Source: a virus (taxonomy: Duplodnaviria; Heunggongvirae; Uroviricota; Caudoviricetes). Taken from it: DNA of 15,044 nt. Shown piece by piece: positions 1,350 to 10,294 of this stretch; position 1 is the stretch's first letter, and each line of letters begins with the position of its first letter. A model generated the notes under the pieces. That model saw only the letters and a list, made by a program, of their open reading frames with translations, was not told where the DNA came from and did no database searches. The position numbers were made by a program, and so were the translations under genes. The stretch lies in IMG/VR virus record IMGVR_UViG_2713897056_000007; one strand, given 5' to 3'.

Positions 1350-2399
1350 TTAGGCCAGCACACCAATTGCCAGCGCGCGATCGATAAATCGAAAAATCAG
1401 CTCCAGTTGGGAGCCATACTTCTCTTCAAATGCCACGGTATCCGTATGCAACTCGTCGTGATGCTTTCTGCACAAAGGCAAAACAAAGAGATCATGTGCT
1501 TTGGTTCCCATTCCGCCCTGCCCGTGACCAATCAGATGATGCGGATCGTCGGCTGGCATACCGCAGCAAGCACACGGCTGTGTCTTAACCCAGCGTGTGT
1601 ATTTCTCCTTAACCCACCGGTGACGTTTAGGCAGCTTCATGAAAGATTCCGGAGACTCTGGATCAACGGTGATGCTTACCACCGTCTTTTCCTGTGATGG
1701 GTTTTGTTGCTGGTGGGCGTGAGGCAACGGTGCAAGATTTTTTGTGCGCTGTTTCAATATGCTGGTGGCGGTCTGCTCTCCCGGTACGATGTCGCTTTCG
1801 CGGTACACCGAGCAGATTTTTTCCGCTGGTAATCCCAGCGAGCGACGTAATACCGCTTCCGGTAGCGCGTCCGCCAGCTGATTGCGGACCGCCCACCAGG
1901 ATAATTCAGCCAGAGATAATTCACGCTCCTGCGTACCGCTTATTGCGTGACCGATGACGTCAATCATCCATGCTGACAGGTTTTGATGAGCAAGTTGCTC
2001 GAGTGATTCGGATGTCTGGTCACGCAGCTGGTTGTCGCAGTGCCAGCACAACACCATTGCGCCGGTACCATAACGGTGAATGACGGTTTCACTATGGTGA
2101 TAATCGCCGTGTGGCCACTGGCAGGATTTAACATGGCGCAGTAACCAGTCAGACAATGCGCCAGCGCCACCAGCAGCACGAATCACTCGTTCGTCGCTGA
2201 AAAATGGCAGTAATGATTTATCCTCCGCCAGCGGCTGGCGAACGGCAGGAACGACCCCGGACGGCAGATTACGCATGCTTTTCGGTTCCGGCTCCACCAG
2301 TACCCGGGTATTGTGGAATACCGGCATGGATTCACGGCCCGGCTTAACGATCACCAGCCCGAGTTCCGGTACCAGAACAGGTCGAAGTAATACCCGCAC
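1350..2399 (-). CDS. ydfU: YdfU-like DUF968 prophage protein with C-terminal HNH-like Cys/His motif
   Basis: 349-aa ORF with GTG start preceded by GGAGG at 4 nt, translationally coupled to the upstream gene (stop at 2401-2403). C-terminus ...[20 protein letters not shown]...[10 protein letters not shown] is an HNH-type zinc-finger nuclease signature. Lies next to Q as ydfU does next to quuQ in Qin (from memory). Confidence 0.75.
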
Positions 2400-2679: not shown

Positions 2680-3033
2680 CGGTTGTCTCTGCTGGCGCAG
2701 CAGGTGCCAGTTGTTCAGGCTGGCGTATAAAGTATAAATAAACTGGTTCCAGTGTAAAGCCCCTACATTAATGGAATAAAAGTCAAACAACAGATTGTTG
2801 GGATAAACACAACGCTTATTATTAAAAGCGATTAGATAAATTAAATTTTAATGTTATGCAATTTTACCAGATCACCATAACATCTCGTTTGAAACCACCG
2901 AAACAACAACCATATCAATATTGATTATGTTAAAGTGAGTAAATATGGAAAACAACAAATCTGCACATTACGCTCCTTTTTTATCTGTGATACTTTTTGT
3001 TTTATGCTGTGTGTGGGCATTATTTTTATAAAA

Positions 3034-3063
3034 ATATTTACAGATAAAATAAACCCGCCGAAG
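3034..3063 (-). terminator. Rho-independent terminator downstream of hok (minus-strand orientation)
   Basis: Stem AACCCGC (3046-3052) / GCGGGTT (3057-3063) with a 4-nt loop; on the minus strand it is followed by TTATTTTATCT. No T-tract on the plus-strand side. Confidence 0.55.
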
Positions 3064-3137
3064 CGGGTTAAGCGCGGGTGCGTTGAGGATGCCTGACACA
3101 TCAGAGGCGGCGAGGGATTTCTCCCTCGCCAAGTCTC

Positions 3138-3293
3138 TTACTCCTCAGGTTCGTAGACTGTGAAGACAGCGACCTCCATCTGGCCGGTTCGGATTCGTAC
3201 CTCGCAGAGGTCTTTCCTCGTTACCAGTGCCGTCACTATGACGGTTAAACAGATGACGATCAGGGCGATTAACATCGCCTTTTGCTGCTTCAT
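3138..3293 (-). CDS. hokD: Hok-family type I toxin (HokD/RelF-like small membrane toxin)
   Basis: ATG at 3293 with AAGGAG 9 nt upstream; 51-aa product MKQQKAMLIALIVICLTVIVTALVTRKDLCEVRIRTGQMEVAVFTVYEPEE, near-identical to my recollection of HokD/RelF. Track ORF 3138-3350 is the same frame extended 19 codons upstream to an ATG at 3350. Confidence 0.85.
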   Translation of the reverse strand: MKQQKAMLIALIVICLTVIVTALVTRKDLCEVRIRTGQMEVAVFTVYEPEE

Positions 3294-3504
3294 AGCCTGC
3301 TTCTCCTTGCCTTTCGGCACGTAAGAGGCTAACCTAGATTTGCCGTTCATAGATTGAGCCTCAGATTAATGTTAAGCGTCTTGCAGGACGCGTAATGTTA
3401 ACTGGGGCTTTTCTCTATCTGCCTTTGGTGTTCATGCCTGAGGCAGATAGCCTCAAGCACCCGCAGCAATTCTACTTAACTCCCGTCACCTCGCCAATAT
3501 AAAA

Positions 3505-3594
3505 TCAATCAGAAAGGCGATCCATAAGAACAACAGCAAGACAATAAATTGCCATTACAGCCGCAATAGCTAGCGCACATTTGAGAACCAGCAC
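3505..3594 (-). CDS. Candidate small hydrophobic peptide (29 aa, GTG start), unannotated-type sORF upstream of hok
   Basis: GGAGG then 5 nt then GTG at 3594; translation (M)LVLKCALAIAAVMAIYCLAVVLMDRLSD is a single predicted transmembrane helix. A candidate promoter TTGAAT-17-CATATT lies upstream on the minus strand. Below the track's length cutoff; coding status unproven. Confidence 0.25.
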   Translation of the reverse strand: MLVLKCALAIAAVMAIYCLAVVLMDRLSD

Positions 3595-3910
3595 GACAAC
3601 CTCCTGTATTGGACGTACACCAGTTCTGATAAATATGAGGCTGTCTCATCATTGATTCAATATAACTATTGGGTATAGTTTCTGTGATTTTGTTCTGTAG
3701 AAATGGAACACAACAACCAGTCACCACCAGCACTTCTTTAAATACGCCAAGTCCGACGCAAGCTAACCTTCTAGTCCGCTTTGAGCGATCTGCAGACATT
3801 GCTAGCAGCCTTCTGTGTGAATTCTCAGGGAGCAGGTCGGCATAGCATCACGTTGAGGCTCTTACCCTACTTGTTGACACCAACCCTAACTCCACAGACT
3901 GATTCATAAA

Positions 3911-4912
3911 TTAGTAATCTGCGTGTTTCGCACTTTTCAGAAATGCTTTCATATTTTCATTAGGTCGCTCAATTTCGAAGTTACTTCCATATAACTCTTG
4001 TAATTTTGGCCATAACTTACTTAATAACCCTCTCCTGCGATAAAATGGATGTATCCAAACGGTAGATAGGTACGGAGAATTTGCATTTGAATTGTTTATT
4101 GTGACCAGCCCAACTAAACATTGTCGATAACCACTATTATCCATTGATTGTATTTCTTCGACGAATGGATACGCGATTACATCAGTCCAACCATGATCGG
4201 TTGTATCCCATTGCATTCCGTCATGACATTCCTTCGACTGATAGCGGCGTAAAGCTACACACGCGAGCTTTTGCCAATCTGGAGAATTAATTGTGATCTC
4301 TTCATCGTATGACGCGCCTATTGGAGCGGGTATTGGTCTGATTAATCCAGCATGGCATTCATCATAGAACTTCATGTTTCCCTCAGAAACGTTGTGTACG
4401 TTGGGTTGCTCCATGTGTGCGCCATTCAAAAATAGCTCTGATAGTAGTGTATCTACACTGTAATCTTTATTGATTATTGTCGGCTTAGAGTTTTTCTTAT
4501 TAAGGCCGCGAGTAACGATTTTTTGATCAATGTTAACAACATGGAATAATCCGTCGGGGAGGCTAGCGAACCACGATGGGGCATCGGACCAGAATAGCAT
4601 GCCTTTTGTACTTCTTAAGAGTTTAATTAAGTTAATACAAGCTTCTTCACTAGTCTTGCCGTTGATGCGAAGTATGTTAGGACTAAAGTAATATTCATCC
4701 ATATCAGGGAATGCAGCTTCGCAAAACTCCTGTACATAATTTAGCACCTGGATTCTACAGAGATCATCATAGCTGGTAATAACTAAGGGGGTATCTTCAT
4801 TACTATTATGATTATCAATAATGCAATCTATAGCGAGACTTACTGCTTTGCGTATCACTTCAGTTGAATCTAACGACTCTAAAAATTTTGTCTTTCGTGT
4901 GCGAATATCCAT
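3911..4912 (-). CDS. Hypothetical protein, downstream gene of AT-rich two-gene cassette; weak GNAT-like motif near C-terminus
   Basis: 333-aa ORF, ATG at 4912, 15 nt after the stop of the upstream cassette gene. N/K/I/Y-rich, AT-rich coding sequence unlike its neighbours. C-terminal ...CLVGLVTI...YLSTVWIHPFYRRRGLLSKLW loosely resembles the GNAT CoA-binding strand-helix; tentative. Confidence 0.7.
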   Translation of the reverse strand: MDIRTRKTKFLESLDSTEVIRKAVSLAIDCIIDNHNSNEDTPLVITSYDDLCRIQVLNYVQEFCEAAFPDMDEYYFSPNILRINGKTSEEACINLIKLLRSTKGMLFWSDAPSWFASLPDGLFHVVNIDQKIVTRGLNKKNSKPTIINKDYSVDTLLSELFLNGAHMEQPNVHNVSEGNMKFYDECHAGLIRPIPAPIGASYDEEITINSPDWQKLACVALRRYQSKECHDGMQWDTTDHGWTDVIAYPFVEEIQSMDNSGYRQCLVGLVTINNSNANSPYLSTVWIHPFYRRRGLLSKLWPKLQELYGSNFEIERPNENMKAFLKSAKHADY

Positions 4913-4927
4913 GTATGACCTGCGCTA

Positions 4928-5950
4928 TTAAAATTCATGAATGAACGGTTTGTCATCTGGTTGCAAAATGGTGGTTTTATTCGTTGCTACATTTAAACTG
5001 TTGTAGAGCATAATTGCCAGGTTCGATGCATTTTCAATCAGCGTTTCAAGATCCTGGTCTGTAATCACTACGAGGTTCCCTTCTTTATCCTTTCCACCAC
5101 GATGCACTAAGTGATTTCGATTGAGGGTTGCCAATTCAATAGCTTCTATCGGACAGTCTTTTTGTACTTTTATATCGAATGTAGCTTCATAGCGGTCGAT
5201 TACCTTTTTAGTGCTATGCCAGCTTGCACTGATCAAGTGTTCCTTGATTGACCTGATTAGCTCTCCCCTAATTTTCTCGATGGGTTCACCCTTGAAAGGC
5301 AACGCAGCAATATCTTTGCTTACTTTAAATTCAGTCTTACCTTTTTCTATACAATTGGCTATGTAGACATCATCTTTCTCTATAGAATTAATGAATAGCT
5401 CAACATAAAGCGTTTCCAAAGCTGTAATAACATTCGTGTAGAGCAAACTAAGCAAGTGGTTTTTTTGCTGTTGTTCAGTTTTATCTTTTGCAAGTTTTTT
5501 TATTTTATCGATATTATCAATGAATTTTAAATACGGATTACCGGAAGACGTTACAGCGTCGTAGATATCATCATCGTACCAATCATCTATATTATTTGAG
5601 TTTCCAGACCAGTCAAAACATTGTGTTTGTAATTCATCTACTAATTCCTCAATATACTCAGATTTAACATATTGACCGAAGATGGATTGTAGTTCTTCGC
5701 TCGCATCATACGGCCCGCCATATATGTAAGCATAGCCACCTTCTCTACTTTCATACGGACAAGCATTTGCCGGATCTTCAAAGTTTTCAAAGAACCAGTT
5801 TTTCATTACTTCGAGTTGATCTTTTTTGCTTATGTATTTTAAAGATTTTAGTGGAACTTTCTTTCCATTAACCTCGAAAACAATTTTCACGATGTAACGC
5901 TCCCTTGTATCAATTGCGCAACTATTATACCACAGCGAAATACAGGGCAT
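4928..5950 (-). CDS. Hypothetical protein with C-terminal HEPN-like RNxxxH motif, upstream gene of AT-rich two-gene cassette
   Basis: ATG at 5950 preceded by AAGGAGG at 6 nt. Alternative GTG start at 5890 (MKIVFEVNGKK...) with AGGGAG SD and an extended -10 TGGTATAAT (5932-5924, minus). Motif ATLNRNHLVHRGG about 50 aa from the C-terminus fits the HEPN Rx4-6H signature. Track ORF 4928-6040 over-extends to a non-ATG start. Confidence 0.7.
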   Translation of the reverse strand: MPCISLWYNSCAIDTRERYIVKIVFEVNGKKVPLKSLKYISKKDQLEVMKNWFFENFEDPANACPYESREGGYAYIYGGPYDASEELQSIFGQYVKSEYIEELVDELQTQCFDWSGNSNNIDDWYDDDIYDAVTSSGNPYLKFIDNIDKIKKLAKDKTEQQQKNHLLSLLYTNVITALETLYVELFINSIEKDDVYIANCIEKGKTEFKVSKDIAALPFKGEPIEKIRGELIRSIKEHLISASWHSTKKVIDRYEATFDIKVQKDCPIEAIELATLNRNHLVHRGGKDKEGNLVVITDQDLETLIENASNLAIMLYNSLNVATNKTTILQPDDKPFIHEF

Positions 5951-6081
5951 AACCTGCCTCCTTAAACTAACATACCATGAGCCAGCAATGTCCGCTATTG
6001 GCACAAAGCGGACAACCACGCTAGCTCTACCCTGTGCCACAAAATGTCAATTTGCATCTGAACTAATGCACTTTAATCTCG

Positions 6082-9898: not shown

Positions 9899-10241
9899 CT
9901 AACCAACGAAGCTAAGGTTGGTAATTAAGGAGTTCTCCACGGGTGAGGTGGAGTGCGTGCGCCGGACACGGGTGAGCATCCGGCACTGACAGTTTACTGA
10001 AAGGATATTTCCCTGAAAAGTCAGACCATAACGCGAAAGCGCACGGCGAGGTAGCTGGTTCATAGATAGCCTGTCGTTAAATTTTCGTCGACCGTGCGCT
10101 TCCGGTTGTGGCAATCCGCGAAATGGCGCGGCGGTAAGTATGGCGGGGTTATTCCTTCCACCGTTGAGGACACCGGGTTGTCAGGTTGACCATACGCTTA
10201 AGTGACAACCCCGCTGCAACGCCCTCTGTTATCAATTTTCT

Positions 10242-10294
10242 GGTGACGTTTGGCGGTATCAGTTTTACTCCGTGACTGCTCTGCCGCCCTTTTT
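10242..10294 (+). ncRNA. dicF: DicF small regulatory RNA (antisense inhibitor of ftsZ and other mRNAs)
   Basis: TTTCTGGTGACGTTTGGCGGTATCAGTTTTACTCCGTGACTGCTCTGCCGCCC followed by TTTTT matches my memory of the 53-nt DicF sequence including its intrinsic terminator; located just upstream of dicB as in Qin. Confidence 0.85.

Follow-up and report, generated by a model that had tools for sequence, protein, structure and literature searches.

The hok/mok/sok locus of plasmid R1, the founding member of its family of type I toxin–antitoxin systems, and the hokW/mokW/sokW locus of phage 933W/Sp5 are the described systems against which the present locus is best set. From work on R1 hok/sok and on the phage locus it is known that the Sok RNA blocks translation of mok and thereby that of hok, that loss of the unstable Sok RNA leaves Hok free to damage the inner membrane, and that in a prophage this damage assists lysis on induction (PMC8621323). 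HokW, which like other proteins of its type is only 44% identical to R1 Hok, is toxic, localises to the inner membrane and is counteracted by the 71-nucleotide (nt) sokW RNA; mitomycin C depletes sokW and increases HokW in a way that depends on RecA, and deletion of the hokW/sokW locus halves phage release (PMC8621323). Here we describe a hok locus of this lineage, together with a 29-codon open reading frame (ORF) that lies upstream of it, in the IMG/VR virus record IMGVR_UViG_2713897056_000007. The whole 15,044-nt stretch is referred to below as the window and all positions are given in its numbering unless stated otherwise.

We read the region as a pair of minus-strand modules that adjoin one another but can be separated, a complete hok/mok/sok cassette (3052–3497) and an independent gene for a small membrane peptide (~3498–3797), and put the probability of this at about 0.78. 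A sequence-only reading made beforehand, all of whose features are located on the minus strand, had described hok, a structured leader and the short ORF as one arrangement and had proposed either Mok/Sok-type regulation or an additional small membrane peptide. Each proposal turns out to suit a different part, the first applying to 3294–3464 (on the evidence of Rfam, the 933W alignment and RNA folds) and the second to 3505–3594 (on that of a coding-type substitution pattern). What did not hold was the inclusion of the short ORF in the hok leader, as it lies upstream of the hok promoter and also occurs without hok.

The cassette, a complete hok/mok/sok locus, is already known biology. The HOK_GEF family (PF01848) matches the 70-amino acid (aa) product with E=3.6e-21 (74.9 bits, against a cut-off of 22 bits), whilst the match to the NCBIfam Hok subfamily falls below its cut-off because this longer Mok form was the query. 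Rfam model RF01794 (sok), which as built describes the leader on the hok strand, beginning at the mRNA 5' end and stopping at the ATG of hok, matches 3288–3462 with 111.7 bits (E=3e-25; gathering score 59), and alignment of its first position at 3462 places the 5' end of the hok mRNA at ~3462–3464. The predicted full-length hok mRNA (3464 to 3048, 417 nt) has a minimum free energy (MFE) of -184.6 kcal/mol (z=-8.8) and is closed, in both the MFE and centroid folds, by a 14-bp long-range helix (3464–3451/3088–3074) corresponding to the tac/fbi fold-back. Plus-strand RNA from 3343–3418 folds into a short 5' tail and one long hairpin followed by U's (-33 kcal/mol, z=-6.1), a predicted architecture that is that of Sok. 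The candidate Sok promoter was placed where it is because of its position relative to that of R1, which we take to be TTGCGC-17-TATCCT and to occupy the same site. The Sok-target hairpin is 16 nt longer than the Rfam consensus but the same 16 nt are present in 933W and BL21(DE3), and the excess is a trait of the lineage rather than an oddity of the window. In a megablast search, the segment 3051–3482 was found in 80 phage records, including 933W and VT2-Sakai, where mokW, hokW and the SokW antisense RNA are annotated.

Against this background the individual features picked out earlier find a ready place. The in-frame 19-codon leader ORF corresponds to the first 19 codons of Mok (the 70-aa ORF 3138–3350), the 10-bp perfect inverted repeat (3415–3424/3441–3450) is the first hairpin of the hok mRNA and the imperfect repeat at 3371–3396 is the apex of the longer Sok-target hairpin (3357–3409). 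The statement that hok has no relB/relE upstream is correct: neither gene appears in the ORF list of the window or in the gene order of an identical genome, in which hok is preceded by hypothetical ORFs, a DUF977 gene and a gene for a replisome organiser, and the alignment to K-12 diverges ~14 nt before the hok ATG. That this absence is anomalous does not follow, the relBE–hokD arrangement of K-12 being the truncated form.

The second module calls for fuller treatment. We sampled the 29-codon ORF at 100 loci, representing 37 distinct 196-nt regions and 18 distinct ORF sequences with identity down to ~80%. In all 100 the ORF is intact, 29 codons long, starting with GTG, ending with TGA and free of indels, whilst indels do occur in the flanks. 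Its 24 variable sites are distributed 6/3/15 over the three codon positions, and synonymous changes outnumber nonsynonymous ones by 18 to 9 against an expected synonymous fraction of 0.26 (p=1.2e-5), or of 0.30 once transition bias is corrected for (p=7.6e-5). Among the six frames, that of the ORF is the only one both open and enriched in synonymous changes, and the best of the six; on the opposite strand, the frame with the same wobble positions has a smaller excess (17:12) and is interrupted by a stop. The replacements are all conservative (A/V/T, V/I, M/V/T/I, D/E, R/H and C6Y) and preserve the hydrophobic core, and variable columns make up 24/90 of the ORF versus 52/68 of the 68 nt upstream. 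The peptide comprises one hydrophobic helix (residues 6–24) and an acidic tail; its grand average of hydropathy is 1.81 and its 19-residue Kyte–Doolittle maximum, at residues 6–24, is 2.70, values consistent with a single transmembrane helix, as had been predicted. Because of the substitution pattern we judge the ORF to be very probably a real protein-coding gene, specifying a single-pass membrane peptide. The GGAGG-5nt-GTG arrangement reported for the ORF is indeed present on the minus strand (AGGAGG, 3605–3600), and the two comparisons that the sequence-only reading had suggested, conservation across related prophages and the balance of synonymous and nonsynonymous change, both came out in favour of coding.

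A number of observations pull the other way. The homologues are shallow, being confined to Escherichia/Shigella and at least ~80% identical, and the variants are not phylogenetically independent, for which reason the p-values above are approximate. The start codon is GTG in every copy. The candidate promoter of the ORF matches the consensus at just 8/12 positions, which puts it below the threshold of the promoter scan, by which it was therefore not reported; its -35 hexamer is replaced in 18/100 loci and the entire promoter is missing from BL21(DE3). Finally, in 97/100 copies the ORF stands 8 nt from the hok -35 hexamer: a functional tie to hok is possible and part of the conservation of the ORF could come from hitch-hiking with it. 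Taken to its limit, this last point gives an alternative in which the ORF is untranslated and its conservation is that of a DNA or RNA element, such as a promoter upstream element serving hok or a segment of a longer transcript, or is due to hitch-hiking altogether. The near-complete lack of annotation of the ORF by the Prokaryotic Genome Annotation Pipeline (PGAP), the closeness and linkage to hok, the limited diversity of the homologues and the residual synonymous excess on the antisense strand would all suit such an element. It would be hard to square, however, with the third-position bias, with a synonymous excess that is strongest in the frame of the ORF (the competing antisense frame being interrupted by a stop), with the confinement of indels to the flanks, with a conserved Shine–Dalgarno (SD) sequence and spacing, with the intact ORF at three loci that lack hok or with an mRNA fold that is unremarkable (z=-1.8), and we regard an untranslated element as unlikely.

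The position of the ORF supports its separation from the cassette. Located on the upstream side of the hok promoter, its stop 43 nt before the 5' end of the hok mRNA, it falls outside the hok leader and within a separate mosaic module (~3498–3797). A 306-bp segment (3483–3788) is common to a set that differs from, and partly overlaps, that sharing 3051–3482, and most phages have only the latter segment in common with the window. Each element also occurs alone: hok is found without the ORF in 933W and many others, and the ORF without hok/sok at three loci, in E. coli NCTC9112, E. coli GIMC1405 and a Shigella flexneri, although 97 of the 100 sampled copies directly precede hok. The terminator scan found no terminator-like site between the stop of the ORF and the hok promoter. 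It might accordingly be supposed that the ORF is a regulatory upstream ORF, modulating read-through or folding of 5'-extended hok transcripts, with a peptide that has no role of its own; the shared strand, the short terminator-free interval and the tight linkage to hok would all fit. Selection seems to act on the amino acid sequence itself, however, the replacements being conservative and the helix staying hydrophobic, and the ORF occurs where hok does not, whilst hok is provided with a promoter of its own and, in 933W/Sp5, functions in the absence of this ORF. We therefore consider a purely regulatory role highly improbable.

In addition, many genomes, E. coli O157:H7 amongst them, match the window only at 3484–3527, that is, over the -35 region of hok and the ORF's final seven codons. 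These partial matches suggest that the ORF was the ancestral neighbour of this hok lineage and that recombination cut it in the prophages concerned.

The coordinates of the cassette and of the peptide module are collected in Table 1.

Table 1 Features of the hok/mok/sok cassette and the adjacent peptide module (window numbering)
Feature	Position	Strand	Basis
29-codon gene (very probable), predicted single-pass membrane peptide MLVLKCALAIAAVMAIYCLAVVLMDRLSD, GTG start	3505–3594	-	ORF list; conservation; hydropathy
Shine–Dalgarno sequence AGGAGG, 5 nt before GTG	3600–3605	-	Sequence
Candidate sigma-70 promoter of 29-codon ORF, TTGAAT-17-CATATT	3632–3660	-	Hexamer conservation; palindrome 3635–3649 inside
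Conserved non-coding part of 29-codon ORF module	3661–3797		Homology boundaries; alignment
hok promoter TTGGCG-17-TAGAAT	3469–3497	-	Promoter scan
5'-terminal element of hok mRNA (tac)	3451–3464	-	Pairs with 3' fbi in fold
First hok-leader hairpin (10-bp perfect repeat)	3415–3450	-	Fold; helix 1 of Rfam RF01794
Sok-target hairpin of hok mRNA, mirror of Sok terminator	3357–3409	-	Rfam; folds; 933W alignment
Sok antisense RNA gene, overlapping mok start; 5' tail, long terminator hairpin, U-run	3342–3412	+	sokW transfer; fold
Candidate Sok promoter TTGCCT-17-TAACCT	3307–3335	+	Read from sequence, inferred; not reported by consensus scan
mok frame, 70 aa	3138–3350	-	ORF list; collinear with annotated mokW of 933W
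hok toxin coding sequence, 51 aa, HokD/HokW lineage	3138–3293	-	ORF list; Pfam; PGAP hokD in 100%-identical genome
fbi element in hok 3' untranslated region	3074–3088	-	Fold; partner of mRNA 5' end
Intrinsic terminator of hok mRNA	3052–3069	-	Terminator scan and fold

The expression signals of the ORF are well preserved on the whole. The SD sequence is GGAGG in most loci and GGAGA or GGGGG in a few, at a spacing from the GTG that is constant apart from a 2-nt insertion beside the SD in a single locus. Of the candidate promoter with an internal palindrome that had been proposed upstream, the promoter stood: the -10 CATATT is kept in 99/100 loci and the -35 TTGAA(T/G) in 81/100, even where spacer and flanks have diverged. 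The palindrome (ATGAG-N5-CTCAT, 3635–3649, in the spacer and -10) fared less well, the ATGAG being ACGAG in most close relatives and the whole being absent from the diverged group; it is not a conserved operator. A possible LexA box in the 5' untranslated region was rejected on by-eye inspection, its spacing being wrong. In BL21(DE3) (locus L011 of our sample, 2523–2932) a deletion fuses a shortened DUF977 gene to the upstream region of the ORF, and the DUF977 frame crosses the first 13 codons of the ORF in another frame, leaving the SD and the ORF intact. The fold of the ORF mRNA is not unusual and does not sequester the SD; a 5'–3' closing helix considered within it is not significant (z=-1.8), and no compensatory changes were seen by eye in the aligned homologues.

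Further upstream, a second palindrome (AACTAT-N5-ATAGTT, 3664–3680) abuts the -35 hexamer of the ORF and is almost invariant, whilst a hairpin at the mosaic junction (GTCCGCT-N10-AGCGGAC, 3774–3797) shows G–U-compatible changes on the minus strand. A structured RNA or small RNA in 3661–3797 was considered and rejected, the covariation term of RNAalifold being ~0 and Rfam at E<=1 giving nothing credible.

TisB and ZorO, two small toxins of E. coli, belong to the same size class as the 29-residue peptide, and a type I toxin of the TisB/ZorO/DinQ kind, held in check by an antisense or divergent small RNA that has escaped notice and forming a double toxin cassette with hok, has to be weighed. The peptide is indeed a small hydrophobic membrane peptide, of 29 aa with a single transmembrane helix and a polar tail, and adjoins another type I toxin; moreover, the promoter scan gave plus-strand promoter-like sites at 3476–3505 (antisense to the ORF) and 3652–3679 (divergent from it). 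The sites themselves are poorly kept, however. The first loses the key A of its -10 in about half of the variants and is gone where hok is absent, and the second is missing, along with the whole upstream segment, from the most diverged loci, which keep the ORF. A trans-acting RNA complementary to the ORF mRNA was rejected, the best complementarity between the upstream region and that mRNA (9/10 nt) being at chance level. Rfam gives no hit in 3500–4000 and the upstream segment shows no covariation; in all, no cognate small RNA, antisense or divergent, was found to travel with the ORF in a sequence-only search around it, which cannot fully exclude an RNA. A strong SD is left unsequestered, the C-terminus is not basic or aromatic but acidic, and BLASTP of the peptide against Hok gave no alignment. 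Membership of the type I toxins is thus not supported by what can be read from the sequence, and we think it very unlikely.

There is also the suggestion that the peptide is a functional partner of Hok, acting as membrane modulator or immunity factor, as co-toxin or as a holin-like helper co-transcribed into hok on induction, or else the first of a new type I toxin family. We give this only a slim chance, and hold a Hok partner or an independent toxin to be less likely than an accessory function; if it were a partner, a hok cassette that is widespread among prophages would include a protein so far unrecognised.

How widespread the ORF is became apparent from a scan of 5,426 complete E. coli genomes, 1,959 of which carry it together with its promoter, in up to three copies each. 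It goes without a PGAP annotation in almost all genomes, one having WP_000960667.1, a 'hypothetical protein', whilst older gene calls (in REL606 and E. albertii, for example) have it as a 'membrane protein' or 'conserved hypothetical protein'. The curated families of Pfam, NCBIfam, PHROGs and PADLOC contain no match to the peptide, and a phmmer search of 1.84 billion representatives with a 30-residue version returned only nine near-identical proteins, most of them N-terminal extensions made by gene callers through non-coding sequence. Scanning one genome per species located the ORF only in Escherichia/Shigella and in short contigs of metagenome-assembled genomes, which are probably E. coli contamination. 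A literature search by peptide sequence and by hokD combined with small-protein screens gave nothing on the ORF. An overlapping 96-aa ORF (3509–3799) was rejected, as in homologues its ATG is lost and a 14-nt deletion shifts its frame; the plus-strand ORFs annotated in phage HannyBb over this region are judged unlikely to be genes, being antisense to the hok leader and the 29-codon ORF.

Returning to the two-module reading, the steps of the cassette can be proposed because of its homology to R1 hok/sok and hokW/sokW. A stable hok mRNA would start at ~3462 and be kept closed by the tac/fbi fold-back between its 5' and 3' ends; translation of hok would depend on the overlapping mok frame, and an unstable cis-antisense Sok RNA (~3342–3412, plus strand) would pair with the mok start region and block it. 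For the neighbouring module, a moderate sigma-70-type promoter and a strong SD would drive production of the 29-residue peptide from its own promoter in the lysogen, with insertion into the inner membrane. As there is no terminator between the stop of the ORF and the hok promoter, transcripts from the promoter of the ORF and, on induction, from pR (the early-right operon) may be expected to read into hok against the convergent Sok promoter, which would fit the reported loss of sokW on induction.

Our best guess for the peptide is an accessory small membrane protein of the prophage 'moron' type. Among the many small membrane proteins of bacteria it is an uncharacterised one, whose gene is conserved and widely distributed in E. 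coli, with nothing yet to mark it as unusual. The value of the finding is modest: a conserved and apparently selected gene, present in about one-third of complete E. coli genomes and in such much-used strains as UTI89, BL21(DE3)/REL606 and the type strain, is almost always omitted from RefSeq annotation and could not have been seen in small-protein screens based on K-12, the strain in which the majority of such screens have been carried out. The hok/mok/sok part adds nothing new beyond the fact that this prophage holds an intact form of the locus truncated in K-12.

Two further tiny hydrophobic ORFs lie beside hok loci. On the plus strand of the window, 2945–3031 encodes a 28-codon ORF (MENNKSAHYAPFLSVILFVLCCVWALFL) with SD AAGGTGAG, convergent with hok and ending ~20 nt short of the terminator of hok. 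Three diverged loci of E. coli, with nucleotide identity as low as 74% and several synonymous changes among them, have an ORF of unchanged length, start, stop and SD, and it is also present where hok is absent; a 261-bp segment containing it occurs in 1,188 of the 5,426 genomes but is never annotated. In phage 933W (positions 1939–2022, minus strand, of our locus L001) an unrelated 27-codon hydrophobic ORF (MTWPEAFANVGTVMAVVLVVYSICRWR) occupies the slot of the 29-codon ORF, its ATG overlapping the stop of L0139 (ATGA) and its end lying ~15 nt before the hokW -35. With tblastn this ORF was found in 91 phage records, down to 54% identity and in some cases in other genome contexts. Two unrelated membrane-peptide micro-ORFs thus share the slot before hok and, taken together, the three ORFs suggest that several membrane micro-proteins have been overlooked in the nin region of lambdoid prophages.

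The window as a whole is an E. coli lambdoid prophage of the Qin/Rac type. A canine E. coli chromosome is 100% identical to it over the region, and its PGAP annotation runs, on the minus strand throughout, Q antiterminator, ydfU (DUF968), a hypothetical gene, hokD, two hypothetical genes, DUF977, replisome organiser, YdaT and Cro, followed on the plus strand by a LexA-family repressor, ydfABC and dicB. From this gene order hok and the 29-codon ORF are placed in the nin region, with hok oriented as the early-right operon. The DicF small RNA is found at 10238–10289 (plus strand) as a full-length Rfam match (76.7 bits) in the expected ydfABC–dicF–dicB context. Between the DUF977 gene and the module of the 29-codon ORF (3911–6040, minus strand) lie two cargo ORFs, one of 333 aa that weakly matches GNAT (PF00583, 19.9 bits, just under the cut-off; phrog_16994) and one of 370 aa that weakly matches HEPN_RES_NTD1 (phrog_17908). 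Other genomes have DUF4145, QueH, a dATP/dGTP pyrophosphohydrolase or methyltransferases here, and the slot looks like a variable cargo or defence hotspot; the anti-phage peptidase IteS, also in other genomes, occupies the slot of hok itself, on the opposite side from the cargo slot.

Comparison with known systems can be made for each module in turn. The 29-residue peptide resembles the small single-helix membrane peptides of E. coli, which include TisB, ZorO and DinQ as well as non-toxic inner-membrane proteins, in its size, its one hydrophobic helix and its possession of its own SD; it differs from the TisB/ZorO/DinQ type in that no similarity to curated families and no cognate RNA were found. 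With the hok/mok/sok system of R1, the cassette has in common a Hok protein of ~50 aa, a mok frame that overlaps hok, a cis-antisense Sok transcribed from a promoter within the leader, the fold-back pairing of 5' and 3' ends and the 5' end GGxGCUUGAGGCU. R1 is a plasmid, whereas the window locus belongs to a chromosomal prophage, and its mok is in frame with hok, as in other chromosomal hok loci but unlike in R1.

The hokW/mokW/sokW locus of 933W/Sp5 is 93% identical to the window at the nucleotide level over 417 nt. Between the hok promoter's -10 and the fbi element, the latter included, the two align without gaps, so that the annotated sokW (1777–1847 of L001) maps to 3342–3412 on the plus strand. 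The mok start, the position of Sok and the longer Sok-target hairpin are all as in the window, as are the location in the nin region and the early-right-operon orientation. The differences lie in the -35 region of hok and everything further upstream, in the sequence after fbi, where 933W lacks the terminator hairpin of the window, and in a few residues of Mok and of the Hok C-terminus; the fbi element itself is invariant between the two, with a single-base difference in BL21(DE3).

The relB–relE–hokD (relF) locus of the K-12 Qin prophage is nearly identical to the window in its Hok protein and 3' untranslated region and has the same downstream neighbours (a rem-like gene, ydfU and Q), but homology begins only ~14 nt upstream of the hok ATG. 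Beyond that point relBE stands in place of the mok start, the Sok gene, the leader hairpins and the hok promoter, and the 29-codon ORF is absent. The K-12 arrangement is on this comparison the derived, truncated form, and hok with mok and sok but without relBE, as seen in the window, the normal one.

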